64,000 bases of DNA from Mobula birostris (GCF_030028105.1 NC_092398.1:28800424-28864423), one strand, 5' to 3'; shown: positions 1,162 through 48,300, numbered from the stretch's first letter. Notes: a model not told the origin generated them from the letters alone. Translations and numbers: made by a program.

Positions 1162-1830
1162 TCAATTTCTTTCTCTATGCGGGCAGCGCCGGTTACTTAG
1201 CTGTTCATTCCGAATAGTTTCTCTCAAACTTCGAGTGAATGGAGATTTCACCACCTCCCGTATCTGCTCCCGGAACTTCCTCCGTGTCAAGGCGTAAGGA
1301 GCTGTGTTTGTGCAGCAGCTCAGCAGCTGCAGCATGTAACCCAACTCCCCGATGGTCAAAGGTGGGTACGGAGCACTAAAATAAAGCAAACGCATCCACA
1401 CAGTGTGCACAACAAAAACCATCCACAATACGATGAAATTCGCCGACACGACCAACAGTAAGATGAGTGAATTCCTGCGGTTCTCCGTTTCCGGGTCCTT
1501 GGAACTATCCCCACTATTACGACTCTGGAGTCTCCTCCGGGCTCTGCTCGCCACGAACACGTGCCTGATGGTCAAAACATTGAGCAGCAGAATGACCACA
1601 AAGGGGATGACGGGAGTCAGAAGGTAGCTGCCGAACTCGACTGCGGTCCAGAACACTGAAAGCAGGGCATCATAACTTATATTGCAAAACCAAGGTACGT
1701 TAACAAGCTGATAGTTTTCTGAGAGCATAAAATACCAGAAAATGTTCTTTAAACAGCTCAGCGCAGCCACAGTCCTCAGAACCACAGCCGCCGTTCTCTC
1801 CGTGCAGTATTCAGCTTTCAGATTCTGGCG
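1162..1830 (-). pseudogene. 5'-truncated class A GPCR, GPR139/142-like (intracellular loop 2 to C-terminus)
   Basis: Translates LKAEYCTERTAAVVLRTVAALSCLKNIFWYF...LTPVIPFVVILLLNVLT...DPETENRRNSLILL...GYMLQLLSCCTNTAPY. TM4-TM7 are present. Sequence upstream of ~1830 does not continue the receptor, so TM1-3 are absent. Confidence 0.8.
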
Positions 1831-2081
1831 GTTCCGTAAGTTCAGCTAAAATTCTGAGGCTTCTTCTGCAGGTGTCTTAAATTTATACAGTCTTCCTGAA
1901 AAGATAATTGGGAAGTCGTCCATTTTATACTACACTGCGACGTTGTGAACTCAATATATGAAACTTTAAGAGATACAGACTCAATTGAAACTTTTAAACG
2001 CCAGCTCAGAACCTATGTATTTAACCTTGCTTTTAACTAAAATCATTTTGTCTGTTCTTTTCGTGTTATGTCAGTGCGTAT

Positions 2082-2976
2082 TGTGACAAAACAGGGTTAC
2101 AAAAGTACACATAGACTAAGATGTTAACTGTCCTGTGCTATCACAAGTGGGATCATCAGTTGATCTGCCACCTGTCTTCAGGAGAGAGAGATAAGTAAGA
2201 CAATGGAGCAGCATTTGGAAATGTTAATGAAGAGACGAGAGAGTTTAACGGAAGGAGACACCGGTCTGAGTATTGTCAAGACCGGCTGCTTTGAACCCTG
2301 AACTGTTTGAAGTCTGATGGACAGGCGATACCCCAACAGGGGGGATAAAAAGGGACAGGTTCGCTAAGGCAACAGACACCACTCACGACACCACGAGGTA
2401 ACGAGACCCTGGAAGCGGTGCGCCCCCCACAAGTCGGTGGGTGTTTTGGAGGGCTGATCGCGGGACCAGCCATAGACGCACAGGGTGGAAAGATACGGTC
2501 AGCGGGAACCTGGTGTGTGTGTCCGCCCTTGCCTGGGTGCCGGGTTCACTGCCGAGGAGCGATCGTATCTGGAACGGAGGGGTCACAGTCGGTGACCTCA
2601 GAAGACATTACAAAGGGCTCGCCCGAAAGCTGACTGCGAGGAATATCGAAGGTCTGCTTGGAATCCGATCTGAATATTCATTCGTTCTCTTTCTCTCTCT
2701 CTCCAACGGCACAATAGTGATTACTGCGAACTGAACTCTGTCACTTGTGATTGATCATTTTACCCCTAGACTGCGATAGAGCTTGATTGACCTTATTATC
2801 CTAGTTCTGTGTACATGTGTGTTTATTCATTGCTAACCTGTTGCATTTATATCCTTACTATTAGAGTACTGTGTTGCTTATTTCTTTAATAAAACTTTCT
2901 TAGTTCCAGTCATCCAGACTCCAACTGAGCGGTCTATTTCTGCTGGTTTGGCAACCCAGTTACGGGGTACGTAACA
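2082..2976 (+). mobile_element. 5' LTR of a Gypsy (Gmr1-like) element
   Basis: TGTGAC...GTAACA termini, immediately followed by a PBS and gag. The left boundary is inferred from the TGT/ACA ends. Confidence 0.7.
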
Positions 2977-2980
2977 TAAG

Positions 2981-2999
2981 TGGGGATCTCGTCCGCGAT
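2981..2999 (+). promoter_or_regulatory. Primer-binding site, tRNA-Pro type
   Basis: tggggatctcgtccgcgat, 4 nt after the LTR end. It is a variant of the tRNA-Pro PBS TGGGGGCTCGTCCGGGAT. Confidence 0.7.
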
Positions 3000-3076
3000 T
3001 TCGAACGCTAAATTTGGGACGGGGTAAATTGATTGGGTTAAAAATTCCCGAAAGAAAGAAAAGGCAAACAGCAGAA

Positions 3077-6000
3077 ATGGAGATTGAGGAATTTCTAAAG
3101 GCGCCGACCTTGGAGGCATTAGAGGATGCCAGAAAAGCGGAATTGGCAGCTGTGGCCAAACGGTTGAATCTTGTTAAGGGGAAGTCGACAATGAGGAGAG
3201 AGGAGACACACAGAGCTATCGTAGAGCACTATGTATCTAAAGGTGTGTTTCCCCAAGGGGAGCTGGAGGTGATATCTATTGGAAAACCTGGTGGAGACGC
3301 AGTACAGGTGCAGCTTGAAAAACTGAGACTCGAGCACGAGTTCCGGGTACGGCAGCTAGAACACGAAGAGAAACAGTTAGAACGACAACGAGAAGAGAGG
3401 CAGTTGGAGCGAGAAGAGAAACAGAGGGAAAGGGAATTCGAGCTGGAGAAGTTAAAGATAAGGGCAGAGCAGGGGCCATGCCGAACCAAGGTGGAGGGTT
3501 CAGGGTGACCCAGGATGTTAGGCTGCTTCCCCCATTTGACGATACCGATGTGGATCGGTACTTTCTCCATTTCGAAAAAGTCGCTGCAAGTCAGGACTGG
3601 CCGAGGGATAAGTGGGCTGTTTTGCTTCAGAGTGTGCTTAAAGAGAAAGCCCAACAAGCTTACTCGGCTTTGTCTGCGGAAGATGCCCAGAGGTATGAGG
3701 TGGTGAAAGAGGCCATCCTCAAGATTTATGAGTTGGTCCCGGAGGCATACCGGCAGAGGTTCCGGAATTTAGAGTTTGCCCGTGAGATGCAGACATATTG
3801 TGAACGTTGGTGAGCCTCGAAGGGGGTAAATGGGGATTATGACAGACTGCTAAAGCTGCTCCTGATTGAGCAGTTTCAAGGTTGTGTCCCTGAAGGTATG
3901 AGACCCTACCTAGATAAGAGGCAGCCACGTTAGCCACAACTGCTAAGTTAGTGGATGAGTACGCGTTGGCGCATAAAATGAAGTTTTCCCCGAGTAAAGG
4001 CTACCAGAAGGGTAGTCAGGACGGCGGGGAGAGTCCGCGGGAAAAGTCCGTAAGTAAGCCGGGGACTAGTGAGAAGGATAAGGTAGACCAGGAGCAGTCT
4101 GGTAGGAATTGTCCTGGGGTCGTCTGTTATAATTGTGGGAAAGTCGGACACTTTGCGTCCAGGTGCTTTGCTCCAAAGGAGGAGACGGGGAAAGGAAAAA
4201 CGGCGATTTCGATTGGCTGTATCGAGCTGGTAAACGAACCGCTAGGAGAGGAAAGATCTGCCAAAGTTCAGGAAGGGCGCGAGAGGTTTATCTCGGCCTG
4301 ATTGGTGTCGGTGAAGAAGGGGTTAAACCCAGTTCCAGTGCGGATCTGGAGAGACACGGGAGCGTGTCAGTCATTGATATTAAAGGGTGTGTTAGACTTT
4401 AGTTCAGAGACCGAGACTGGGAAAGTCAGGGTCATAAAAGGCATTGGAAAAGGGACTGAGGTAGTCCCTTTGCACCAGATACACCTACAAAGCAATTTGG
4501 TCTCTGGACTAGTCACGATCGGGGTGAGGCCCGAATTACCGATGAAAGGCGTGGAAGTCTTGCTCGGTAATGACCTCGCCGGGGGAATTGTGTTCTTGGC
4601 AGTGAGATTGACAGGTCAGCCTGCCAGCATTGAGGCCCCGCCCATGGACTCACAGGTCCATCCCGATTGCGCAGTGACTCGGCCTGTGTCCAGAAAGACT
4701 GCCGAAGTAAATTTAACTGAGTCGTTTCTACCAGCCTTGTACCAAGAGGAGGTAGAAAGTGAAAAGAAGGAGTGTAGTGAAACAGAAGGAAGCTGAGGCA
4801 GACTTAGCATTAGCCAGGAAGAAATTTGTACAGACGCAGGAGCGAGACGAAGAGCTGAGGGTTTCGGCGGAGACAGCTCTCTCTGAAGCAGAATTAAAAA
4901 GTGAGCCAGTAGGCTATTGTGTGGAGGAGGGAGTGCTAAGGAAGAAACGGAAACCAAGTACCGTACCCGCAGATGAGGAATGGGGGATGGTGCCAAAAAT
5001 TTATGGGGATGAGATTCTTAACCTGGCCCACAAGATACCCCTCGGTGGAAATTTTGGAAGGAGGGAAACAGTCGGCGGAATCATGAAAGAGTTTTACTGG
5101 CTGCACAGGAGGAAGGATGTTATTGACTATTGCAGACGTGAGTTAACACAGTTAGAGGCTATTAACATGTTAAAAGCCCACCACGATCAGAGAACAGATC
5201 TAGCTGGTGATATCATGAAAATTAATAAGGCTAGGGTGCCACCTGAGAGGGGAGGGCCCATTTTGAAAAGATAAGTGTGATGCCGACCAGAAGGGAGATG
5301 TCTATTGTTTTGACCCGTTTTGCTGATAAGGTCTCTCACCTAACCCCCGAACAAAGCGGGCCATTGATAAAGCCAATTAACCGGCACGCGCACGTAGGTC
5401 TAGACGTCCTGAGGCGATGCAAAGAGCTGGGACATGGAGCTGTGGTCACATCAGGTCAGCCTAGTGAGCAACACCCCTATAGAATGATTAATTCAGTGAC
5501 AAACGGGCTAAGGAACACGGAAATGTATATTGGCGATGTAGTGGTCTGGAGTAACACATGGGAGGAGCTGTTCAAAAAGCTGTTTGAAGCCAGCCTGACA
5601 GTAAACCTCGCAAAGAGTGAATTCGGCCACGAAGAAGTCACTTATCTGGGATTTGCGGTAGGACAGGGGCAGCTGGCTCCGATGCAAGCTAAGGTGCGGG
5701 CTATCGCTGAAGTCCCCACCCCGACAGACAAGAGAGCCCTGAGAAGGTTCTTGGAGACGGCGGGGTACTATTGGAAGTTTTACAGAAAAAAAACAACTTT
5801 GCGGATAGTACCCACCCTCTTACAAAGTCCTTACCAAAGAATGCTAAGTTGGTATGGGACGACCCTTGTTATCTGTGTCCGGGGGGAAAACCACTGAAAA
5901 GTTACACTGAACACAATTCATTAGTGTTTTCGGCCACTATGAAGTCTGCTAAGTTGGAGCCTGGTTTGAGAGGATTATTAAAATAACACATATAAAAGGA

Positions 6001-10339: not shown

Positions 10340-11456
10340 CTTTGCTTTCAATTAAGTGTAGTACGGTGCACTTCTTACCAGAATTGCATATGTTCGCAAA
10401 GCGTGCTGAATCCTGTTTTCGTTGATGAAAATATATCCTTAGAAGTTTTATCTATGTTCTGTATGCTTTTATATATGTTGGTTACACCTTTTTCCTAGGC
10501 AATGTTAATCTAACTGCATTCGAGTAGTATATAGTGCTTTCTAAAATTTATCATTTCAGGACTTACTTTTCTTTGTAACAATTCCAGATTAGTTTCGGAC
10601 CAAGATATTATATCAAGAGGATACGTTAGTCTAGGTATAATTAAAGTGTTGATTGCCTTTGTTATATGTTTACATTGAGCTCTGTTTGGCAGATTTTCTT
10701 AAGGCTTGAAATAATTATTTACAAAGTTTTTTCTTCTTTTTTCACACTATGGTTTATTTTCTTTGCTTGTTGATATTCCAGATACTTACGTGTTTCATAT
10801 TGAAACGTCGTCTGTATTTTATTCTGTTGCTCTGTTTTATATTCTAGTGGGTCGGTTGCACATTCCTTTAGGTTTAATGTTCTGCACTATTCATGTCCTA
10901 AGCTCATGTTTGAATCTTTCGAAAATAGCTCAAAGGTGTATAGACGGTATGTCAATGAAGAATTCGTTTGGTTGTCTCTGATTTTATACCCTACTTTCGT
11001 CCAGTTGAATAAATCAATAAATTAGAGCGCGGGTTTGAGGCTCTAGTGGGCTTAGAGAATCGCCCTAGGGGAAAGGAAAAACGTCTCGGTCTAGTTTGTT
11101 ACTGGTGGATTTACTTTTTGTTGCTAATAGATAATGTGTTTATAGTACGTCAATACTTCATCAGATGTTGTCAGAATTTCACAAATATTCGCTGTATATG
11201 AAGAACTTCTATTATCCATGAATGTGGGACAGAACCAATAGTCAATATAACAACTTGAAAGATATCTGCTTTTTCTCCCTGCTTGAGTTAGAATTACAGA
11301 ATCTATTATCAGTTGTTCTTTACATCCTTTCACAGCCTTACCGCATCCTTTCTTCTCTTTTGTAAGTATATTGTGGGTATCTAACTGAGTGGTGATTGGT
11401 TGCAAGACGCATGATGTTACAATTTTATATATAGTTTGTAAACAAGTACTGTACCT
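10340..11456 (-). mobile_element. R4/Dong-like non-LTR retrotransposon RT remnant
   Basis: TCLQTIYKIVTS...KKGCGKAVKGCKEQLIIDSVILTQA...YIDY and, further on, KYLEYQQA. These are RT motifs typical of R4-clade elements. Heavily decayed. Confidence 0.65.
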
Positions 11457-11926
11457 TCTTATCTTCGCCACCAGGGGGCGCATTTGACTGGTTTGATCGC
11501 ATTTTAACCCCTTTCCTCCCGTTCTTTCTGATACTGCTGCTCAATGTTCTGACGGTCAGGCGGATTTTAGTGGCCAGTCTTGTCCGCAGGGGACTCCGCG
11601 GCCGTAAGGATGGAGAGAATGACAAAGCTCCGGAGATGGAAAACCGAAAAAAATCTATCGTTTTGCTCTTCAGTATAACCAGCAGTTTCATTTTGCTGTG
11701 GATGACGAAGGTTGTGTTCAACATTTACAGACGAGTGCCAGGCGTAATTTATTTATCTTATTCTGACCCAAATTATATTGCTGAAACAAGTGCATTTATG
11801 CTGCAAATTCTCAGTTCCTGCACCAACACGTGTATTTATATCCTAACACAGAGTAGATTCCGAGAGGAGCTGAAGAACGGTATAAATTATCCATTGAATA
11901 TATTTGTTCAATTAACTAAGTCTTAG
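11457..11926 (+). pseudogene. 5'-truncated GPR139/142-like GPCR (TM5 to C-terminus)
   Basis: AFDWFDRILTPFLPFFLILLLNVLTVRRILVAS...APEMENRKKSIVLLFSI...FMLQILSSCTNTCIYILTQSRFREEL, open to the TAG at 11926. It abuts the R4-like element upstream. Confidence 0.8.
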
Positions 11927-18551: not shown

Positions 18552-20130
18552 TGTAGGTTTCTGCAAATACAACAAAGTGAGGAGTTTTAGATGCAACGAA
18601 ACCCGTAACATTTTTTTGAACTCCAAGACCTACACAATAAAACGGCACTAAAACCCTGTTACTTAACAGCGCCATCACGTCAGGCCAGCCTCTTAAAGTG
18701 AAACCTCAACTCACTGGGTATTTCTCCCAATCACAATACCCTGCACAGAAACTCCTCCCCGCAACCACCACCACCTCCAGTCCCCCAGTATTCGCTAAAA
18801 CCGGCATTGTAAACCTGTCTGGAGGTCAGACGAACCGCCCGGCTCAGGTCCTGCGTTCCATGGGTGGAGGAACAGCAGGTGCATCTGGCTTGTCCAGAAG
18901 TGTGTTGACACGCTCATGGTAATATTGCGATGCTTGGGGAATATTACAAACCTTGCTGGGCCGGTTTAAGTCCGAAAACTTTCAGGTTTACCTCTCTTAT
19001 CTATGATAAAAGTATATTCTTTCGGCTCCAAAACGTGGAAGAAGCCTTTGTAAGGGGCCTAAGGGGATGTTGGTGTGCGTCATGAGGGACGAAAACAAAC
19101 GAAGGGGAATGCAGGTCAACAGGTACCCAAGAGTGCTGTATGCCTTGATAGGAGTTAGGACAAGGTGAAAAGGAATTGAATTTATTGTTAAGGAGCCTTC
19201 CAGACGGTCATGCCGTGAGGAATGAAATCAGCTGGCACACTTAACATCTGGCCGTATACCAGCTCTGCCGCAGACGACCCCGGTTCCTCCTTTGGAGCAG
19301 ATTTGAGTCCCAGGAGGACCCATGAAAACCAATCATGCCAACAATCATCGGCCAGGGAAACCCTTAGAGCACCCTTTAAGGACGGTGAACCCACTCACAA
19401 AGGCCATTGGATTGTGGGTGATACGCCGTGGTATGATGTATCCTAAAGCCGATGTTTTGGGCCATCGCAGCTCTGAGCCCTGAAATGAAATGGGGATGGC
19501 GATCAAAGGAGATATCAGATGGGGTGCCAAACCAAGCAACCTAGGTGCTGATTAATGTCCGGGACACGTCCGAGGCAATTGTCGGTTCCAGAGGGACGAC
19601 CTCTGGCCACCTGGTGGTCCACCATGGTAAGAAGGTGCGTGAACCCGCAGGAGGGGGTAGATGACCAACAAAGTCCTCATTGACATGGTCACACCGTCGC
19701 TCAGGGACCTCAGAAGGTGTCAATCGCGCCTAAGCATGATGGTTAATTTTTCCCGCTGGCACTCCACACGAACTGCGGTCCTATCATACACGTCTTTTAT
19801 GAGGCGGTGCCAAACAAACTGTAGTGCAACCAATTTACAGGAGGCCTTCCGGTCCGGATGCGAGAGGCCATGTATGGAGTCAAAATCAGTCCGTGTTCAG
19901 TTTGTGGGCACAATGGAGCGAGGGCGACTGGTTAAGACATCACGCAGCAGAGAAACCCCATCCTTCCCGGACTTAATGTCAGCCACCGCAGGTCCATGAC
20001 TACTGTTCAGTAAGCCTGGTCAGTAACTTGGTCACACGCAGGCATGATCAACCCCGCTGTGTATGGCCTCAGTGGCTCGCCGTGAGAGACAATCGGGCAT
20101 GGCATTCTTTTCCCCTTGAAATGTTGTATA
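18552..20130 (-). mobile_element. Gypsy LTR retrotransposon 3' part: RNase H end, integrase, PPT and 3' LTR (18552-18747)
   Basis: KNAMPDCLSR (RNase H end); RRCDHVNEDFVGHLP and WVLLGLKSAPKEEPGSSAAELVYG (integrase). A G-rich tract is followed by a ~196-bp TGTG...CTACA LTR on the minus strand. Confidence 0.8.
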
Positions 20131-20849
20131 TATTTTCTGAACTCGTACATGTTTTTTGAACTCGGATATGTACAGGCCCAGAAAAATCAAACGCTCATCA
20201 TAAGTTAATTCTTTCATTCCAGCAATCAGTCTCATGAACGTCCGGCAGACTCCCTCCAATGCCAGCAAATCTTTTCTCAGGTAAAGGGCCCAAAACCGTT
20301 CACAATACTCTGACCTCTTCCCATCGCACCATCCTGGGTTCTGAATGCACCTTACAGGTCAAGAAAGTAATTCACTTCCATTTTTTCCAGTCTAGTCCAC
20401 AGCATTCAATATTCACACGGTGGTTTCTTCTACCAGAGGAACCAAACAAAGGCTTAGGTGAGTAGCAGAATTCAGTCAGTGGGGGTGAGCTCAGACCTCC
20501 CATTCCCTACTGGAGGGAAGTCAGTGGCTTGAGTAGAAATGTCAGGAGGTGAGGGAGATACAGCGAGGGAGACTCTCATTTCACAAGGACTAGAATATAA
20601 AAGCAACAATGTCATGCTGAGGCTTTTTAAGGCATTGGTGAGAGTATTGTGGGAACTTCTGGGCCCCTTATCGAAGAAAGGATGCACTGGAACTAACTCT
20701 AAGCCTCTAAACTAAATCCTGAACGTTACCAGAAATTTATAACATGTAAGGAGTAACATGACGACTGGAGATGAGGTAGGAGTTAGGAGTAGATCAGCAA
20801 CTAGGGGCTTAGAGTTAGTAATGGGGGTTAGGGTTTTAAATTGGGGTAT

Positions 20850-21130
20850 GGTCTTTGTCTCTCAGTCACTCTTTTTCTGTCTCCCCGCCTGCACCATCTC
20901 CCCCATCAACCCCCACTCTGTTTCCCTGAACCTTTCTATCTCTGCTTCTCCCGTCTCCTCCTATCCTCAACCTGCCTCTTCTCCTTCCCTCCTCTGTCTC
21001 CCCCCTTCTCTCTCTCCCTCTCTCTCTTTCACCCTTCGTCTCCCTTCCACTCTGTTTCTCTCTTTGTCTGTCTTTCTCTCTGTTACTGTCCCCTTCCCTG
21101 TCCTTCCATGTTTCTTCCTCATGCCTTTCT
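20850..21130. repeat. CT-rich low-complexity tract
   Basis: Degenerate (CT)n/(CTT)n sequence. Confidence 0.8.
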
Positions 21131-21469
21131 GTTACTACTGTCCTGGACAGCTTCTAACTTGTATCATAGAGTCTTGAAGAGTCAAAGAGCAATCCAGCAT
21201 GGCTACAGGCCTTTTGGCCCAGCCAATCCATGCAAACCATGGCGCCCTTTCAGCTTGTCCCAGTTTCCTGATTTTGCCACAGTCAGCTGTGGAGATCGAG
21301 AGAAGGGATGTCTTTAAAGTGGAGGTTGATAGATTCTTGGGTGGTAAGGATGTCAAAGGTTACAGGGCAAGACTAGAGAATGGAGCAGAGAGGGAAAATG
21401 TGACGATGGAAAGCCAGAACATAATAGATGGGTCGAAAGGCCTAACACTACTCCTGTGTTTTATGGTCT

Positions 21470-21604
21470 CTTCTGGCAACTATCATATGCCAAAAGAGAC
21501 CATAAACCATAAGAGTAGTGTTACGTTTTTCAGACAGTCGATTCTATTTTGCCATTCAGTCATGGTTAATCTATTTTCTTTCTCTACTCCATTCTCCACC
21601 CCTT
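21470..21604 (-). mobile_element. Polypurine tract (21592-21604) and truncated start of the 3' LTR of the env-bearing element
   Basis: The minus strand reads AAGGGGTGGAGAA then TG. It is cut off by a CR1 fragment below ~21470. Confidence 0.5.
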
Positions 21605-22577
21605 GTAATATTGATCAGTGAGGCACAGAGTACCTGTAATTACTGACAAGTAACCTTTAATGTCTCATCATAAAAGCACATGGATTCACAAACTAACTAC
21701 CTGTGTGGACCCCACTAGAATCCCTGATGCCCCCCCATGAACAGTACATGAAAAGAAAAGATATTACCCAGGGAAAGGGGGCTACACTGCCAAGGCGTTC
21801 TTCGTGGTTCCGATTTCCACGTGTCCATGGGATTCTCCTTATCCGTGATGGTTGGTGTCTGGTAGCTGGAGAGTTATTGCCCCGACATATTTAGAGCTCC
21901 TGGCTCTTATAGTGTTCCGCATCAATTGAACTGGTGGATCTCCATCCCATTGACTCAAGCTCACCTGACCTACCTGTGTCACTTTCATATTGGTTCTGGT
22001 CCAGGGCTACAACCAACATTGTTTCATGGTTCTGCCCACCTCACCCTTGTGTGTATGTGTCTTTCAACTCTGACTGGTCCAAACCAGTTTAATGAGGTGG
22101 CCCCCAGACAGAGATTACAGGTTGCTTCTTTGGTAGGTCTGGCACTTTCCATAATAAGTAGCTACTCGTCTGAGAATGGTCTCAGGTTTAGCAGGTTATC
22201 ACCCGAAGCTGCTTGTGTCCACTTTCAGTTGCTCTGATTACGGTATCCCGGAGCAAGAATCAGTTCAAAGTCTACAAAATTGAGAGAACCAAAGACTGTC
22301 TGCTTCCCCTGTCCTTGATTCATCAAATCCACTAATTGCAGATTGTAGTTTCTTCTGGCCAACATCTCTCTTCTCTTGATCCAGAAATATTTCTCAGAAT
22401 CATTATCCTCCTCTCATTCAGTTGACTGCCCATAGGACTGCCATGGAACCCCAATAGGTGTGCAATACTCACATTCTATAAATAATATTAGCAGTTCCTT
22501 ACTAACTTCACCCAGTTTATACTGACAATCATCTGTGCTGTTTCGTGAAAGTATTATCCTCTATTTTTTCGACTTTG

Positions 22578-23845
22578 TTACATTATTTCAGCCTTCCATC
22601 TTCTCAGTTGATATACATTGAGCAATACAATTATCAGGGTACATAAAATTAGTATTACAGCACCATGTGATACTACCCTCACCCACGGATGTGCTTGAAC
22701 ATTTGTTCCCCAATTGCAAAACTTACACTAAAAGTCTGGGTCACTCAATATTTCACATGCCTTACCAGCATGTGTTTTAATTACTTCAGTGAGCTCAGTC
22801 CATTGATGGATTATCTACTTTGCCTTCTCCACAACACATGTCCAGTCTGCAGTCAAGTGAGGAATAGGTGGCAGTTCACTAACAACTTAAATCATTCGTA
22901 TCAGAGCGTCGGATCTTGAAATTCTCTTTCATTACTGTGTCTCCTGCTGGCTGAGGCAAAGTTCATTCTCCAATGGCCTGATCTAAAGACACATTCCCTA
23001 TGGCGAAATTGTGACTTTCCAAAGGGTATTGTTTCCATCCCTTGGTATGACTTGTAGCCCCTGTTCCTCTATAGTATGTCTGTCCCACCAGTCATATTGT
23101 AAATAGACTGATTATTCACAGGCAAAATAAACAATGAACAATTTTCATAAGTACTGAAACCACAATTTGTAAGTTCTGCTTTGTAATTTCTTTTGAACAA
23201 GACCAGTGGGCCTGATGGCATCTTGATAATCTATCCCTTTCCCAGTTCTATTCATAATAATAGCATGTGTTGGTGGGTTAGTTGGGGATATCTTCTATTC
23301 TCATGATATTTACCAATATTGTGAACCCTTTTCAAAGGGTAGGGTGAATTATTTCCATGTCAGAGAATGTGGAATACTACTCTGATATAAAACCTTCCTC
23401 TACCATCATCACAGGTACCCAGTACTCTGTTGGGTATTGTATGACTCCGTATATGAGACAATGGCGCCCTTTCTCTGACCCATTCTTTTAGCTAATCATC
23501 TGAGACCCAATTAGGTACTTGATGTGCATAAAGTTGCGATAAATTAGTGCCAATCATGGTAAGCAAACAACTAGCAAATGTAGCACAGATCTCAGTTTTA
23601 TTCATTTCCTTAGACATGAGGTCGATGTGGTCAATAATCAGATGTATTGAAATTTAACCACATCCAGAGTTACCTGGGATGCACCTCGACCAATCTGATT
23701 AGTTTATACCTGATCTTGATAATTTTCTCCAGTAATATCTCTTGTTTTCTGCTGTATCTGGTTTTCTAATTCTGTTATATCTAGGGTGTTGACCCTGATA
23801 CATAACCTAACCCACTACCTGCAATTCCAATAGTTGCCTGACTTT
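22578..23845 (-). pseudogene. Decayed env-like class I fusion protein (F1/TM-like subunit)
   Basis: Across frameshifts and stops: ATIGIAGSGLGYVSGS (fusion-peptide-like), LDITELENQIQQKTRDIT (heptad), ICATFASCLLTMIGTNLSQLYAHQVPNWV, LKRVHNIGKY, CHQAHWSC, TNCGFSTYENC, then HPWVRVVSHGAVILILCTLIIVLLNVYQLRRWKAEIM* (TM anchor and short tail; stop at 22578-22580). Confidence 0.7.
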
Positions 23846-24816
23846 TAATAGGCATCAATTTCCCATCAGAGAGTTTAGCTGGTCTGCGTATCTTCCTTTC
23901 CCATGCTCTACTCATTTTCCTCAGTGCCCATGCCCCAGTATGTGTGGGTTTGGAAGGATCAAACATTTCCAGTGCCTTTTTAGATACATCAGTACTGTGA
24001 GACACTGGTGTTCTCAACCATCTATTTAAGGCCTCTGGTCCTAAATGCTGTTCCATACACCACCGGGAACACCGTCCACAAACGGGATGCAAATGCAGTG
24101 GGATATTCACCGCTCCTCTGGTAACATTTGTCTAGCCCGTCTGCTAGGTGCTCCCCCATAAGTAGGGTACGCGGCTATGATGCACCCACGGCGTAGATTC
24201 GACCTAGGAGTATAAACTGGCCTTAACAGTCAAAATTGTGTTCTTCAGTTCCACACTTGTTCCCTCACCATGCCATTTTATAGCTGGAAGAGTTTATATC
24301 TGGATGTAAACACATTATAATCAATTTCCTTTCCTCAGAATCATCTAGACCATGTATAACACCCTGATGACTAGTTGCTTGGAAAGGCTTTCAAGGATCG
24401 TTTCTGAGCACAAATGACCTGATATTCTTAGCAAAATCTCTAAAATGCCCGAAAAGTGTGGTGTATGTTATATTCTGATTTTGATTCTCTCCCCTTGCTC
24501 CCCCCTCTCCGATAGTAACTATCGATGCCAATCGTGCAGACAGTAGCACCAGCTCCCGCGGGCAGGGAGCTGGTGGCAGTTCCTCGGGAAGCGGTGCTTA
24601 GTAGTTATCGTAGCCGTACCTAGTAGCTTCATCTGCTAAATCATGCCAATCAATATCTCCATATTCACCTTCCTACCCTTGTTCAGAGGCAAAAGCACAT
24701 ATTATTCCTCGTTGTGCAGAAAGTTGGTCCTGCAGCTTTTGAATCTGCTTTAAACTCTTTGCATGATCACCAGTGTTACTCTTGCTTTCCTGTGCTGATT
24801 TCTGAATCACATTCAT
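23846..24816 (-). pseudogene. Decayed gag-like region of the same LTR element
   Basis: Coiled-coil SLKQIQKLQDQLSAQRG, proline-rich PLPEELPPAPCP, then a capsid-like segment HGLDDSEERKLIIMCL...GLDKCYQRSGEYPTAFASRLWTVF (CxQxxGExxxxFxxRL pattern). After a frameshift it continues HLGPEALNRWLRT...WALRKMSRAW. Confidence 0.6.
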
Positions 24817-25004
24817 CTATCTATGACACCTCCTTAAATGAATTATTCACATTTAAACTCATCAGGGCTCACTTTATTCATGGGAATAATTATTTCATTA
24901 TCATTCATACGTTAAAAATAAAACTGAGTAGGCAGGGGCGTTAAAAGACAACATCTAACAGCCTAGAAAATCAGCCAGTCTGGCACATCATTAGGATTTT
25001 GCAG

Positions 25005-25315
25005 CATTGTAGCGTAGCGGTTAGCAAAATGCCATTAAAGCGCCAGCAATCACCAATCGGTGTTCAATTCCTGCTGCTGTCTGTAAGGAGTTTGTACTTT
25101 CTCCCCATGACGGTGTGTGTTTCCTCCAGGAGCTCCCGTTTCCTCCCACGTACAGTTAGGGTTAGCAAGCTGTGGGCAGGCTATCCTGGTGCCAGAAGCA
25201 TGGTGACACTCGCAGCCTGCCCTTGGCACAATCTTCACTGATTGATTCGATGCAAACATCGCATTTCACTGTCTGTGTCAAGGTACATGTGACAAATAAA
25301 GCCAATCTTCACCTT
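25005..25315 (+). mobile_element. V-SINE-like (HE1-type) element
   Basis: tRNA-like head (agcgtagcggttagc...ggtgttcaattcc), V-domain gtttcctccaggagctcccgtttcctccca, and tail gtgacaaataaagc. A reverse copy lies near 32480-32615. Confidence 0.65.
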
Positions 25316-25832
25316 AATCTTTAAGAAGACAGATAGATTTCTGCAAGTAGAAGTCATCGAAGAGTGTGAGGAAAGAACAAAAGCATCACGCTTTGATGGG
25401 ATTCGACATTATCGTAATGAATGAGGCAAAAGACTTGAGGTGTAAGTGAAAAAAATACAGAAATGCTGGAAATCTTGGACAATTCCAATCAGGTATCTGC
25501 AGTGTTTTTTTTCCTGAGTTTCACAGACCTTCAAAGCCAACCACCTGTTCCAGCTTATATGAAGAGGGTTACCTTCAAGATGGACCAATATGCACTGACC
25601 CCCTGAATCTGCCCGGGTCTGTGGATTCACGTGGGCAGGAGGCATGAGGACAGGTGATCCCTTTAGTGCATGAGTTGGCAAGTCTGGAGTTCAAGGTCCT
25701 TTCACTGGCAGGTCCTGGGGTCAATAACAAATATCGAAGCCTGAAGGTCAAACGGAAGTCTGGAGGTTGATATCGCCAAGATCATCGGAGGTTGGATGCT
25801 CAAAGGCGGACTGTCCTGGGGTTGGAGGACCA

Positions 25833-25865
<33 letters not shown>

Positions 25866-26229
25866 TCGGGAGGAATAGAGCCTGCTTTGTTGTTGTTGAT
25901 TTATTGCTGTTCTGTTGTTGTTTTGTTGCTCATATTGTTCCGATAAACATTATGTTGGCGCCGGAATGTGTGGCGACCTTAAGTTGTGTTGGTTGTTCAT
26001 GCAAACGGCATATTACTCTGCATGTTTGCTTTCAATATACGTGTGACAAATTAATCTTTATCATTACCTTTAAGAAGAAAGATAGATTTCTGGATGTAGA
26101 AATTATCAAAATGAGTAAGTAAAGAGAAAGAATATGTTGAAATCAGAGTATCAGTCCCAATCATATCGAATGAAGCAAAAGACTTGAAGCATTGAAATAG
26201 GCAAGTGAAAAACACGGCATGGGTTTAGT

Positions 26230-27190
26230 GACCATCCGCTTGATATCATCTTGTAGACCTCCATGAAGTCATCTCTTGCCTTCCTTCGCTCCAAGGAGAA
26301 AAGCCTGAGCTCGCTCAGTCTTTTCTCATAAGACATGCTCACCACTCCAGGCAGAATCCTGGTAAATCACCTCTGCACCTTCTCTAAATCTTCCACGTCC
26401 TTCCGATGAGGTGACCAGAACTGAACACGATACTCCAAATAGGGTCAAACCAGAGTTTAATAGAGCTGCAACATTACCTCCTCACTCTTGAATTAAATTC
26501 CCTGACTAATTGAAGGCCAATACACCATACCCTTTCTTAAAGCATAACAGTGGAAAGGTGAACGGTTTCTCTTGGGTATTAACATCTCTGAAGCTCTAAC
26601 CTGGGTTCAACATATTGATGCAATTACAAAGAAGTCTCAATGGCGGCTGTATTTCATTGGGAGTTGGAAGAAAATTAGTATGTCACTACGGACACATGCC
26701 GATTTCTATAGATGTACTATGGGGAGCATTCAAACTGGTTGCATTGCAGTTTGTTATGGAGGGGCCATGACACGGGATCAGAAAACTCTGTAGAAAGTTG
26801 TAAACTCAGCCAGCTGCATCATGGGCACTAGCCTCCTCAACATCCAGGACATCTTCAAAAGGCAATACCTCAGGCAGGTAGCATTCATCACAAAGGACCC
26901 CATCACCTAGGACATGTCTTCTTTTTTGCTACCATCAAGGAGGAGGTATGGGAGCCTGAGGAGGCACATTCAATGTTTCAGGGACAGAATCTTCCCCTCT
27001 TCCATCAGATTTCTGAATGGACAATGAACCCATGAACACCACCTCAGAATTTTTCCCTCTCTTTTTGCAGTACTTATTTAATTCTATATGTCCTGCTTAT
27101 TGTGATTCATAGTTTATATGTCAATAATTGCCATAAGACAACAAATCAACAATTTACATGACATATGCCAGTGGTATTAAACCTGATCTG
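26230..27190. mobile_element. CR1 3' remnant (-) followed by a Rex1-like 3' fragment (+)
   Basis: MSYEKRLSELRLFSLERR; LGINISEALTW...KKSQWRLYF. Confidence 0.7.
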
Positions 27191-27516
27191 ATAACTTGTC
27201 CTACCAAACATTGAGCGATCTATGGATGTGAGCCCCAAGATCCCTTTGCTTCTCCCCACTATTCATTAGAGGCATGCCTAGTTCTGGTCTATCCAATACT
27301 CTCAGCCATTTCTGATAGTCACATGGTCAACGTAAGTGTGGTCTAACAAGTGTGTTGTCTAGCAAGGGAGCAAATGGATTGAAATTGTAACTTATAGTCA
27401 GATGGAACCTGCAACTCAGAAGATTGAAATCACCATGTTTCATGCAATTCATTCGCAACACACCCTACCCTTGAGACGGCTCTTCAACTATCCTTCTTCT
27501 CAATTGTGTTCATCAG

Positions 27517-27796
27517 GGAAGACAGTTGACTCCTACACAGCTCTGTGGTTCTCAGAAACAGGCCTGCGATTTGGTTACGTTGGCAAAGACATCACCTATT
27601 TTGATTTCTCTGTCAGGAAGTTTTTGGCCAGTATTCCACTGTTGAAAGACTTTATCAGTGGTCTGAACCACCTCAAACCCTGTCTTTGAAGTCAACCGTA
27701 CCAAGGAAGTTCTGATCCTGAATGCCAAACTGTCTACATCATAACATCATGGAAGTTATGTTGAACTTGGAACAGAGCCAACTCTACAAATGCAAG
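27517..27796 (+). pseudogene. Frameshifted MHC groove-domain exon (class II/W-type), paralogue of exon 2 at 41305
   Basis: Acceptor tgtgttcatcag. LRFGYVGKDITYFDFSVRKFLASIPLLKDFISGLN aligns ungapped with LQFAYNGETTVRFNYTTGKFVAINPIVKPYMDDLN (12/35 identical). There is a stop at 27687-27689, and a later frame gives NCLHHNIMEVMLNL. The likely donor reads GC. Confidence 0.7.
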
Positions 27797-28381
27797 GCAA
27801 ATTGCTGACAACAGCGCCCCCACCAGTTTATTTACAAAACTACATTTATTATAAATTCAAACCACTACAGTGCATTACAGACTGCATTACAAACAGAAAC
27901 AGGCAAATTATGACTAATACAGTTTAAGCTAACACATTCCTATCCTCATCGAGTATAGCATTTAGCCCCCTGCCACCCAGAGTGCCCAAAGGTCTCGAAG
28001 TACCTCTGTACTACCCATAGTCACTGTGCATGTTATTTTTCCACATCTGCCCAGGCACAGGCATCTCCCTCTCCCTCAAACATTGCCAGGTAATCAGCTT
28101 AGTCAGAACTCTCCACTACCCACCTCCAAAACCCACAGGTAATTATCTTACCCAGCTACCAGGAGCAGATTAACTGGGGCATCAGCCTTTCTCCCTGCCC
28201 CTCCGTACTGGATGACTAAGGATGAAGAGGGTGTGGCTGACAGTGTCCCCACCGTCTGTGCACTGACACAATAAGGTCAGTCAGCATAGGAGCAGGTCCT
28301 GTGGCCCATCATGACTGTGCTGTCCATCAGAGTCACACAGCTCGGGAACAGGCCTTGTTCCTGTCAGTAATCTTATGTGCA

Positions 28382-28984
28382 TGTAATGCCCTGGTTCATA
28401 TATTTTTTTACTGTTATGCTGTTTTGTATTTCATTTTGTGCTGTTCTGTATGAGCTGCTTGTTTTCAGCTTATGTTTGGGTTATTGTTGAAGATAAGAAA
28501 TAGGAGAATTGTGTGCCATCCAATTAGGATGGTCGGATTAGGGGAGGTTTCTCTGGTGAGGGATACTAAGGTTGGGCTTGGGGCTCTTGTCAGAGAGAGA
28601 TGAAGAGAGAACACGCGGGAGAGAAGAGGCTGTAGGATTGGACCCAGAGCAGGACCGTGATTCGACAAAGCCCGGGGTGATCGATGGAGGATCACCGATG
28701 GGGAAACCGAGAGTCCAACTTGTGCACATTAGACTGCTTCACAAAAATGGGCCCTTTTCTTTTTTTTTGTTCTTTCTTCACTAACCCTTTCGTCAAGTTA
28801 AGAATAGTAAAGCTAAATCTTTTAACTGAATGCATTGTACTGTCTGTAATTTCATGCACTCATTTGTAACAGGGTAACAAATTACACACGAACAGGGGAT
28901 TTCAGGGTGGGCTCGTGACTTAGTCTCACATGTTTGGCGGGGCTGGAGATTGTCTTCCCTGGATTTACGAAGCCGAGGATAACA
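28382..28984 (+). mobile_element. Putative solo LTR
   Basis: TGTAAT...ATAACA termini and LTR-like composition. No matching TSD was found. Confidence 0.45.
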
Positions 28985-41090: not shown

Positions 41091-41304
41091 AGCAGCACCA
41101 CCACCAAATCCCAACTATTGGAGTTTTACTGTGGGAGGGAGAGGTGGCTCTGGAGAAGTGGCACCTTTTTGCTGTCAGAATGGTGTGGAATCCACAGAAG
41201 GGAGAGACAAATTTGTTGTTTCAGGTTGATTAATTTTAAGGTTTTAAAATGAGCCATTTCACTCTCACAATTGGTTAATGGATCGATTATTATCTGCTTG
41301 CCAG

Positions 41305-41562
41305 GAATGCACATCGGTCAAGTGACTTTCTCTGGTAAAGGTTCACAGTTTTCAATGGCTACCCTGCAGTTTGCTTACAATGGAGAAACGACCGTTCGCT
41401 TTAATTATACTACAGGAAAGTTTGTGGCCATCAATCCAATTGTAAAGCCTTACATGGACGATCTGAACCGCTATACGGAGGTTATGAAATATGTTACCTG
41501 CTGTGTTGAAAGCATGCCTGTTGCCATGGAGATCGTTCACCAGGCTGTTCAAACTCTGACGG
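41305..41562 (+). CDS. MHC-like gene exon 2: membrane-distal groove domain (beta1/class I alpha2-like)
   Basis: ccag| acceptor and |gtaag donor, phase 1-1, 258 nt. (G)MHIGQVTFSG...LQFAYNGETTVRFNYTTGKFVAINPIVKPYMDDLNRYTEVMKYVTCCVESMPVAMEIVHQAVQTLT. Confidence 0.85.
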
Positions 41563-41579
41563 GTAAGTTTATTTTCACA

Positions 41580-42090
41580 AAAAAATCTGCAGATGCTGGA
41601 AATCCAAGCAGCACCCACAAAGTGCTGGAGGAGCTCAGCAGGCCAGGCAGCATCTATGGAAAAGAGTACAGACGACGTTTCGGGCTGAGACCCTTCATCA
41701 GGACTGGAGAAACAAGTTGAGGAGTCAGAGTTAGGAGGTGGAGAGGGGTGAAGTAAGGAGCTGGGAAGTTGATTGGGAAAAGAGGTGCAGGCTGGAGGAG
41801 GACGAATCTGATAGGAGAGGACAGAAGGGCATGGAAGAAAGAAAGGGGGGAAGCACCAGAGGGAGGTGATGTGCAGGTAAGGTGAGAGAGGGAAAAGGGA
41901 ATGGGGAATGATGAAGTGGGGGGGGGGCATTACTGGAAGTTCGGGAAGTCGGTGGTCATGCAATCAGGTTGGAGGCTACCCAGGCGGAATATAAGATGTT
42001 ACTCCTCCAACCTGAGTGCGGCCTCATCCTGACAGAAGAGGAGGCCATGGCATGGGAGTGGGAAGTGGAATTAAAGTTTTGTTTTCAAAG
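41580..42090 (-). mobile_element. Penelope-like 3' end and tail in intron 2
   Basis: Reverse-strand RLGSLQPDCMTTDFPNF followed by the pyrimidine tract and the standard tail. Confidence 0.8.
41669..41706 (-). ncRNA. Minimal type I hammerhead ribozyme motif (best-preserved copy)
   Basis: The minus strand reads CAGTC-CTGATGA-A-GGGTCTCAGCCC-GAAAC-GTC-GTCTG: intact core, GGG/CCC stem II, palindromic ACGT stem III, GUC cleavage triplet, and one mismatch in stem I. Confidence 0.7.
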
Positions 42091-46111: not shown

Positions 46112-46629
46112 TGTCAGTGATATTAAACCTGATTCTGATCTGCACTAACCTGCAGCTAATTAACTGCACCCTGCAAATTTTCATTTCTAAGTATTTCCAC
46201 CTTATGGAAACTTTGAGTTACCAACAGTTCTTGAAACTTTCATGTGACCTGGGAGTGACTGAAAGAACCCTACCCCTGGTCAGAGGCAGATGACCAAGGG
46301 ACAGTTTCTAAACACAGAAGATTCGGCAGATGGTGGCAATCCAAAGCAACATGTGCGTATGCACGTGCATGCACACACACGCGTGCGCACGCGCGCACAC
46401 AATTCAGCAGGCCAGGCAGCATCTAGGGAGGTGAATAAACATAGGAACAGAATTAGACCATTTGACCCATTGTGTCTGTTCCTCCATTCCGTCATGCTGT
46501 ATTCTCAAGATTGTATAATATACACATGCTTTAATAGTAAACATACTTTGAACTTTGAAGTTCTGTTAGTCTTTACTTTTTTTGATCCCGTAACCAAGTT
46601 CAGCTTCAATGTGTTTCTGTCCACTGCAG

Positions 46630-46911
46630 CGAAGCCGACTATCACAATAACCTCAAGACACATGAAGAACAGAGAGAATACCTTGGCCCTGACATGCCAA
46701 GTGCATGGATTTTATCCCAAGAAAATCCACGCAACGTGGCTGCGGAATGGTGTGGCGATCGATCGGGAAGTGCCAATGACAAGAATTTTACCCAACTGGG
46801 ATAGGACGTTCCAAGTCCGGCTACAGGTCGAAATTGACCCCGAGAAGGGTGACACTTACACTTGTGAAATCGAGCATCTGAGCGTCCCTGACAAGCTGCA
46901 TGCAGTTTGGG
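46630..46911 (+). CDS. MHC-like gene exon 3: Ig C1 domain
   Basis: ctgcag| acceptor and |gtaag donor, phase 1-1, 282 nt. (A)KPTITITSRH...LTCQVHGFYPKKIHATWLRNG...ILPNWDRTFQVRLQVEIDPEKGDTYTCEIEHLSVPDKLHAVW. Confidence 0.92.
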
Positions 46912-46992
46912 GTAAGGCTCAGAGTCTGAATAATTTGGGGTGCAGTGTACTGGTGATGATCTGGTTCACACTCTGTCCAACACTATATTATA

Positions 46993-48300
46993 CACTCAGT
47001 GGCCACTTTATCAGGCACCTCCTCTACATAATAAAGTGACCATTGAGTGTAAGGTCGTGGTCTTATGCTGCTGTAGCTCATCCGCTTCAAGGTTGGAAAT
47101 GTTTGCGTTCAGTGACGCTCTTCCGCACACCAACATTGTATCAGGCGGTTCTTTCAGTTACTGTCGTGTTCCTGTTAGCGTGAACCAGTCTGGCCATTCT
47201 CCTCTGAAATCTCACTAACAAGGCACTTTTGCCCACAACTGCCACTCAGTAGATGATTTTTTTTGTTTGTTTTTCACACTGTTCACTTTAAACTCTCGAG
47301 ACTTGTACCTGAAAATCCCGCGAGCTCAACAATTTCTGAGATACTCAAACCACCCCATCGTGCATCAGCATCGTTCAAAGGTACATTTATTATCAATCTA
47401 TGTATTCAGTATTCAACTCTGAGATTCATCTTCTCCAGATAGCCAGGAAAAAAAGAAATCCATGGAAGTCATTCAAAGATAAACATCAAACCCCCACCCC
47501 TCCACTGCACAAAAAAAACAAAACTGAACAGGAACATCAACCCCCCAAACCCCCACCCTGCACAAAAAAATCAAAATGCTACAAGAACATCAACCCATCT
47601 AAACCCCACTCCCTCACGTAAAAAAAAACTAACAAAACATGCTCTGCAATAACAAGGTGAAAGAACAGGGGAAAACATAGAATATAAAAATCATAAGACT
47701 GGAAGTCCATAGTCCAATCCATAAATTCAGAACCTGGTAATGTCCTCTGACCAACAGCGAGAGAGAGAGAGAGAGAGAACACTCAAACACAGAGGCCTGC
47801 CCTCCAACAACAAAGAGTGAAAGGCACCACACAGCAGAGAAATCCATCCCTGCAATCAAAAGGCAAGCAGTTGCCTCAGATTCAATCTTCCTCGACACTT
47901 TACTCAGCAAAATGGAGTCGATCATTGGCCCCTGCCTTATCTTTAAGCTGCTTCGCCTTGAGGCTGTTTGAGCTTCCTGGAATCTTCCCGGAGACAGCAA
48001 AGCACTAGATCACTCAATTGATCTCTAAACTGTAAATCACAGGCTCTTAACAGTTCCAGAAACACATTTCAGATGAAAAGCAGACGTAAAAGAAGTGAAA
48101 TAAACAGATTCGTTGACTATCTGATAGACGTTGACCAGTGGGACGTTGTACACAGGCACCATCTTGTCTAGATTCCATGGTGAAAGTCACTCAGATCACA
48201 TTTCTTCCCCAATCTGATGTTTGGTCTGAACAACAACTGAACCCCTTGGCCATGTCTGCATGCTTTGATGCATTGAGTTGCTGCCACATGATTGGGTGAT
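46993..48300. mobile_element. Tc1-like copy interrupted by an unclassified repeat (~47375-48180)
   Basis: 5' TIR ta|cactcagtggccactttatcagg. The body resumes at ~48185. Confidence 0.7.

Follow-up and report, generated by a model that had tools for sequence, protein, structure and literature searches.

A dead provirus with a predicted F-type envelope in the Mobula birostris genome, and an intact, likely captured sister envelope gene

The stretch of Mobula birostris DNA analysed here (the window, 64,000 nt) carries a decayed provirus, for which we hold the following reading with high confidence: it is a dead, deleted member of the canonical SnRV-like/class III branch of retroviruses, its family encodes a predicted class Ib, F-type envelope, and a sister env elsewhere in the genome has likely been captured by the host. 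The window copy is an ordinary fossil with no present activity; what is new here, apparently, is the intact sister env and the F-type Env of the SnRV-like branch. An earlier note, made from the sequence alone, had described a decayed LTR retroelement with an envelope resembling the fusion (F) proteins of Mononegavirales, and had taken it for a member or relative of the lokiretroviruses in a cartilaginous fish. Of this, the retroelement, the envelope type and the host stand. The proposed kinship holds for Env, which is homologous to loki Env, and fails for the reverse transcriptase (RT), which lies within canonical Retroviridae.

The features of the window copy are collected in Table 1. The gag-like region named in the earlier note matches gag of full-length copies found in the same genome, and the block at the element's other end is an LTR that those copies carry at both ends. 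Missing from the window copy are the 5' LTR, the PBS and the gag N-terminus, lost in a deletion at 24816. A second, internal deletion is seen in the alignment to the copy on C8, where position 5240 corresponds to window 23925–23832 and the match from 11157 onwards to window 23834–22300. What remains of env runs in the order fusion peptide, heptad repeat, Cys-rich ectodomain, C-terminal heptad and transmembrane (TM) anchor, interrupted by stops and frameshifts. Compared by tblastn with an intact natural homologue, P0090 (733 aa), it is 41–45% identical (E 3e-36 and 3e-22), and each of the three minus frames gives a match to profile A1 (E 2e-37, 7e-24 and 2e-12). The heptad, the Cys-rich ectodomain and the anchor (hydropathy window from 22676, mean 2.8) had thus been recognized correctly, as had the absence of a gamma-type signature: the three minus frames contain no CX6-7CC or ISD-type motif. 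Judged by the hallmarks of gamma/epsilon-type Env, ISD and CX6-7CC in TM and CXXC in SU, the family Env does not belong to that type.

Three details of the first description need correction. The Gly-rich stretch IGIAGSGLGYVSG (23831–23793) does lie at the fusion-peptide site; as written it is a mixed-frame reading, and undamaged env copies have, in their stop-free frames, a furin-type cleavage site followed by the peptide, RKKR|GLLELLGAGYAS. The sequence AAGGGGTGGAGAA followed by TG, read earlier as a polypurine tract (PPT), is the tip of the 3' LTR fused to the flank. Intact LTRs, as the comparison of copies shows, start with TGTTGGCC and end in TGTAACA; a deletion of about 48 nt at the 3' end of the window LTR removed its last 10–12 nt and about 36 nt of flank. 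The real PPT, AAGAGAAGAGAGA, stands just ahead of the LTR; a purine run of this type precedes the 3' LTRs of other copies and is absent before their 5' LTRs. Finally, the element ends at 21597 and not at 21470.

Table 1. Features of the decayed provirus in the window, and its intact sister env (window positions unless stated)
Feature	Position	Strand	Basis or content
Decayed provirus	24816–21597	minus	gag remnant, env remnant and 3' LTR
gag remnant (part of capsid, preceded by the tail of the coiled-coil region)	23834–24816	minus	69–83% identity to gag of full-length copies
Internal-deletion junction	23832–23834	minus	about 5.9 kb gone: gag end, whole pol, N-terminal env half including furin site
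env remnant, F1/TM-like subunit	22578–23833	minus	tblastn to intact homologue P0090; profile A1 matches; Env tree
Fusion-peptide remnant	23793–23833	minus	nucleotide alignment to C8 copy; stop-free frames of other copies
Transmembrane anchor	22620–22676	minus	best 19-residue Kyte-Doolittle window, 2.79; aligns to P0090 TM
True polypurine tract AAGAGAAGAGAGA	22365–22377	minus	purine run immediately 5' of LTR start TGTTGGCC at 22364
3' LTR, about 780 bp, TG...CA	21597–22364	minus	block flanks full-length copies on either side; limits set by comparing 10 copies
AAGGGGTGGAGAA plus TG: LTR 3' tip joined to flank	21590–21604	minus	comparison with other copies, which run on to ...TGTAACA
Intact 733-codon F-type env	G000:C3:127239524–127241725 (L095:6525–8726)	minus	inside old decayed provirus

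Heavy decay by stops and frameshifts, as the earlier note had it, is evident in env: 7 stops in the segments aligned to the intact homologue over three frames, 15 frame-shifting indels over about 1.26 kb relative to one other decayed copy, and a dN/dS of 0.69. The 5' end, pol and the N-terminal half of env are gone from the window copy, and what is left is now decaying.

The provirus locus lies within segmental duplications, with five copies of the flank at 94–100% identity (window 19000–28500; C34 at 29.07, 28.70, 25.57 and 25.37 Mb). One duplicate, 97% identical, has the same deletions as the window copy; another duplicate of the same insertion retains the 5' LTR and carries a different internal deletion, and its 5' and 3' LTRs differ by K2P 0.224. 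Elsewhere in the window are MHC class II beta-1-like and Ig C1 exons (PF00969, PF07654) at 41253–41720 and 46263–47039 on the plus strand, which places the provirus within or close to an MHC class II region. Fragments of rhodopsin-family GPCRs (PF00001) occur at 1162–1845 (minus) and 11435–11926 (plus), and two unrelated decayed Gypsy-type elements, with RT and integrase, at about 2975–5900 (plus) and 19300–20100 (minus).

The family to which this copy belongs is numerous. In the 4.0-Gb genome we found at least 54 matches to the env part (from 40 of 459 candidates scored) and at least 71 to the gag part (from 40 of 432); dozens of copies are more than chance would give. The earlier note had proposed looking for full-length copies with pol, and these exist, with the order LTR-PBS-gag-PR-RT-tether-RNase H-IN-env-PPT-LTR. 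Their gag comprises an N-terminal coiled coil, CA and a CCHC box, and Pfam recognizes RVT_1 (4e-23), RT_RNaseH, RNase_H, Integrase_H2C2 and rve. No 3' accessory ORF was seen downstream of env in the full copies. A 4-bp TSD is exact in one copy (CAGT/CAGT) and has one mismatch in two others. LTR pairs of nine copies differ by K2P 0.03–0.20; absolute dating was rejected because a calibrated ray rate is lacking, and the two rates quoted in PMC4422223 are tenfold apart. The PBS is complementary to tRNA-Asn(GTT), and 7 of 10 loci with the PBS pattern are tRNA-Asn genes. On C33, some 90 matches to the tRNA-Asn 3' pattern recur at regular intervals between about 19.2 and 37.3 Mb; the two checked there are tRNA-Asn genes, which suggests a large repeated tRNA cluster.

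The F-type assignment comes from the intact homologue and from profiles. For the fold prediction, P0090 from residue 206 onwards and an alignment of 30 rows were used in place of rebuilt frames of the window copy; the resulting model is of middling quality (pLDDT 66, pTM 0.39). With it, the best 50 Foldseek rows are all paramyxovirus or pneumovirus F (RSV and hPIV3 F; best E 4e-9), and the top nine VIA-align matches are all F (Z 8.2–10.1, rmsd 6–50, 265–323 residues aligned). An Env profile matches hPIV3 F (E 0.002), and in the ESM atlas an Env homologue meets PF00523 clusters at 0.94 (206–215 of 256 features). In Pfam, PF00523 was not matched directly by the six window frames or by P0090, and a single-sequence PDB search with P0090 gave no match. 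The connection also runs through a loki-type Env, P0140 (571 aa), which P0090 finds with phmmer at E 1.3e-5 among 1.8 billion sequences and which itself matches PF00523 (E 4.7e-6); by eye, P0140 closely resembles the loki Envs given in the supplement of PMC7947760.

Homologues of this Env come from two frogs and, among sharks and skates, from seven named genera. Further full-length Envs of the same type are P0117 (Chiloscyllium punctatum, 739 aa) and P0118 (Pelodytes ibericus, 723 aa), each perhaps a young provirus or a further capture; their N-terminal domains differ and, by eye and from one UniRef label, are possibly Ig-like. SnRV Env, too, is apparently F-like: it aligns with the family profile in hhalign (86.6%, E 4.5e-6, 262 columns) and reaches F clusters in the ESM atlas at 0.91. 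In the Env tree long branches lead to the SnRV and loki rows, whose positions were therefore not used.

Class I fusion proteins such as F refold into a six-helix bundle. The ancestral Env of the family would have been a precursor of about 730 aa with a signal peptide, probably followed by an N-terminal domain of about 190 aa (pLDDT 39 in the predicted model) that likely served in receptor binding. Behind this domain would have come an F2-like strand-helix, the furin site, the fusion peptide, HRA, beta domains, HRB and the TM anchor, and the protein would have refolded into a six-helix bundle like F.

An F-like Env could mean that the element is a true lokiretrovirus, the first in a cartilaginous fish. 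Lokiretroviruses (PMC7947760, renamed lokiorterviruses in PMC9040795) have been reported from lampreys, ray- and lobe-finned fish, amphibians and reptiles; the row 'Chondrichthyes 3 0' of its supplement would make them absent from the chondrichthyan genomes screened, although the columns of that PDF may be off. As described there, they share with the present family an F-like Env with an RXKR site, a tether and RNase H, a related integrase (IN) and a coiled coil before the capsid, so that the homologous Env, the dual RNase H and the likeness of the coiled-coil gag N-terminus to the loki smc region all speak for this identification. The dual RNase H (tether plus RH) is common to all retroviruses and thus undiagnostic. 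Coiled-coil gag is also found in SnRV, and the coiled-coil Pfam matches for an smc-like gene are weak. An F-like Env cannot diagnose a lokiretrovirus because it is common to a deep canonical branch that includes SnRV.

The polymerase speaks against a loki identity. The family RT has the canonical motif LPQGFHNSP, different from every loki RT seen, for which the supplement of PMC7947760 gives CPFGY-NSPAEF. With a stop-free natural RT frame as query, the closest matches are coelacanth, frog and turtle elements (49–57%) and SnRV Pol (48%); among the matches listed, SnRV is the nearest named virus by RT (44–48%). Our SnRV Pol row, P0015, agrees with the SnRV row of the PMC7947760 supplement and, at 99%, with a 10,688-nt IMG/VR genome. 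RT trees were built under LG+G4 from 59, 24 and 35 rows, the 59-row set excluding RT hits below 40 bits or 120 residues and the later trees being subsets of 24–35 rows; loki RTs from lamprey, eel, coelacanth, frog and teleosts were gathered by motif and by protein search. In all three trees the family RT falls inside the canonical clade (support 98–100/98–99; 99/98 in the 35-row tree with 12 loki RTs), and the 12 loki RTs form a clade of their own (100/99). A clade of family plus loki RT is rejected (p-AU 0.003 with 3 loki RTs, 0.010 with 12), which answers the RT phylogeny check proposed at the outset.

The integrase tree, which omitted four family IN segments and has no CGIN1, likewise places family IN outside a nine-row loki IN clade (100/99). 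In that tree loki INs group with coelacanth and frog relatives of the family (99/90), on thin sampling, a placement that would favour a loki identity; IN and env are adjacent, and a single recombination could explain both the loki IN placement and the shared Env. The genome itself yielded no match to the loki RT motif at one mismatch or fewer, a weak test that decayed copies would escape, and a loki Pol protein search returned no chondrichthyan among the named entries of its 86 rows. We consider a true lokiretrovirus extremely improbable; judged by the family RT, the element is a canonical retrovirus.

Within canonical Retroviridae, the nearest neighbours of the family RT in the 59-row tree are elements from coelacanth and frog together with unnamed ones (93/88). 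Deep canonical nodes lack support, and the three trees do not resolve a clade with SnRV or ERV-L, so that the label 'SnRV-like' is based on motifs, identity and architecture. SnRV and the SnRV-like ERVs of clade Huo, including CmiERV lineage I of the elephant shark, have a canonical RT with LPQGFH-SP as in the family (PMC4422223, PMC6001957). SnRV further shares the coiled-coil gag with CCHC, the dual RNase H, the polybasic Env site and a homologous ectodomain. It differs in Env length (about 730 aa in the family, about 1,100 in the SnRV frame), and in the family no 3' accessory ORF was seen beside env. This deep SnRV-like/class III branch is already known from chondrichthyans, since SnRV-like ERVs are described from the elephant shark in PMC4422223. 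An F-type envelope has apparently not yet been described for it: in a literature search outside which most subscription papers fell, we found no report of an F-like Env in SnRV-type retroviruses or of an F-type captured env in rays.

Foamy viruses are the other canonical retroviruses to be weighed here. Foamy Env, according to PMC11468914, has a class Ib F-like fusion core, as the family Env appears to have, and foamy Env structures are among the VIA-align matches, ranked lower than F (Z 6.3–6.8). Membership in clade Tu, the foamy-like viruses of fish and sharks, would fit these matches, and a constrained family-plus-foamy RT clade has a p-AU of 0.077, above rejection. Against this, the three to six simian and other foamy RTs sampled, a set without fish foamy-like ERVs, never group with the family; the CCHC box, the ordinary signal peptide and the lack of a visible accessory ORF 3' of env are unlike foamy viruses; and in the PDB an MLV-type RT outscores foamy RT. 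The Envs, too, would differ in layout: in foamy Env a leader peptide is present and the receptor-binding domain (RBD) is inserted within the core, whereas sequence order puts the extra domain of the family Env ahead of the core, apparently as in coronavirus spike. Loki-type P0140 begins at the F2 strand, and the family Env has the domain of about 190 aa in excess of it. A foamy-like virus seems to us quite unlikely, and we retain the SnRV-like placement.

The sister env on C3 gives the family a present-day interest. The integrase upstream of it is broken up among three frames, and the provirus that holds it has lost gag-pol and has flanking LTRs that differ by K2P 0.225 over 504 sites. Its orthologues in Hypanus sabinus, a myliobatiform ray, and Hemitrygon akajei (XP_059838750.1 and XP_072911529.1) are 92–93% identical and gap-free over 733 aa, which also bears out the cartilaginous-fish host proposed from the window alone and points to a batoid, probably a myliobatiform. 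Hypanus carries in addition a truncated 319-aa env model (P0093), on a contig of equal length.

Could this gene be a young insertion that was never captured, or simply a lucky survivor? With the commonest codon among its paralogs as reference, the gene has dS 0.183, dN 0.039 and dN/dS 0.21, with no stops and no frameshifts, whereas all 20 paralogs examined are broken (dN/dS 0.47–1.04, with 1–14 stops and 2–26 frameshifts each). A low dN/dS on this yardstick can reflect subfamily divergence, and broken copies of a different subfamily give 0.20–0.30, so the value of 0.21 is by itself no proof of selection after insertion. The case for selection is made by dN, about one third of K/2 (0.11), together with the stops and indels. 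Neutral simulation at K/2 gave a mean of 9.7 stops and not one stop-free run in 2000. The LTR divergence, the fractured integrase and the gap-free stingray orthologues likewise speak against these alternatives. In contigs of other organisms that span the ORF and its flank, the indels in the 12 of 50 indel rows listed all fall outside the ORF; in one contig the 7 of 8 gap letters listed lie 3' of the stop, and in another all 38 lie 5' of the start. We judge an uncaptured insertion or chance survivor unlikely. The C3 env has likely been kept intact in several rays under purifying selection and thus captured by the host, and we regard it as a candidate captured F-type envelope gene.

Captured envs are known to serve in receptor blocking and in cell fusion, and by analogy the C3 gene may act as a receptor-blocking antiviral or in cell fusion. 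Wang and Han are said to have counted 177 co-opted retroviral genes in 2020. In being an intact env within a decayed provirus, conserved between species, the C3 gene resembles syncytins, percomORF and the chondrichthyan candidates of bioRxiv 10.64898/2026.05.06.723177. Those are gamma-type, whereas this one is F-type. The chondrichthyan screen took gamma-type env only and required ISD and CX6-7CC; it would exclude the C3 gene because the gene is F-type and has neither motif.

These observations bear on how retroviruses came by their envelopes. Wang and Han (PMC9040795) preferred independent acquisition of Env by lokiretroviruses and canonical retroviruses, since the two Envs were without detectable similarity. 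A canonical lineage with an Env detectably homologous to loki Env undercuts that premise, SnRV apparently behaving likewise and foamy Env being F-like, and an ancestral F-type retroviral Env becomes testable. Tentatively, and as a possibility a shade short of probable, we suggest that an F-type class Ib Env was ancestral to retroviruses and kept by lokiretroviruses, foamy viruses and the SnRV-like branch, with lokiretroviruses and the SnRV-like branch sharing an IN-env block, and that live-bearing rays domesticated one such Env for antiviral receptor blocking or cell fusion. The C3 env offers a natural full-length example of an F-type Env; as a candidate for host capture in viviparous rays, it would escape any screen that relies on gamma-type motifs.
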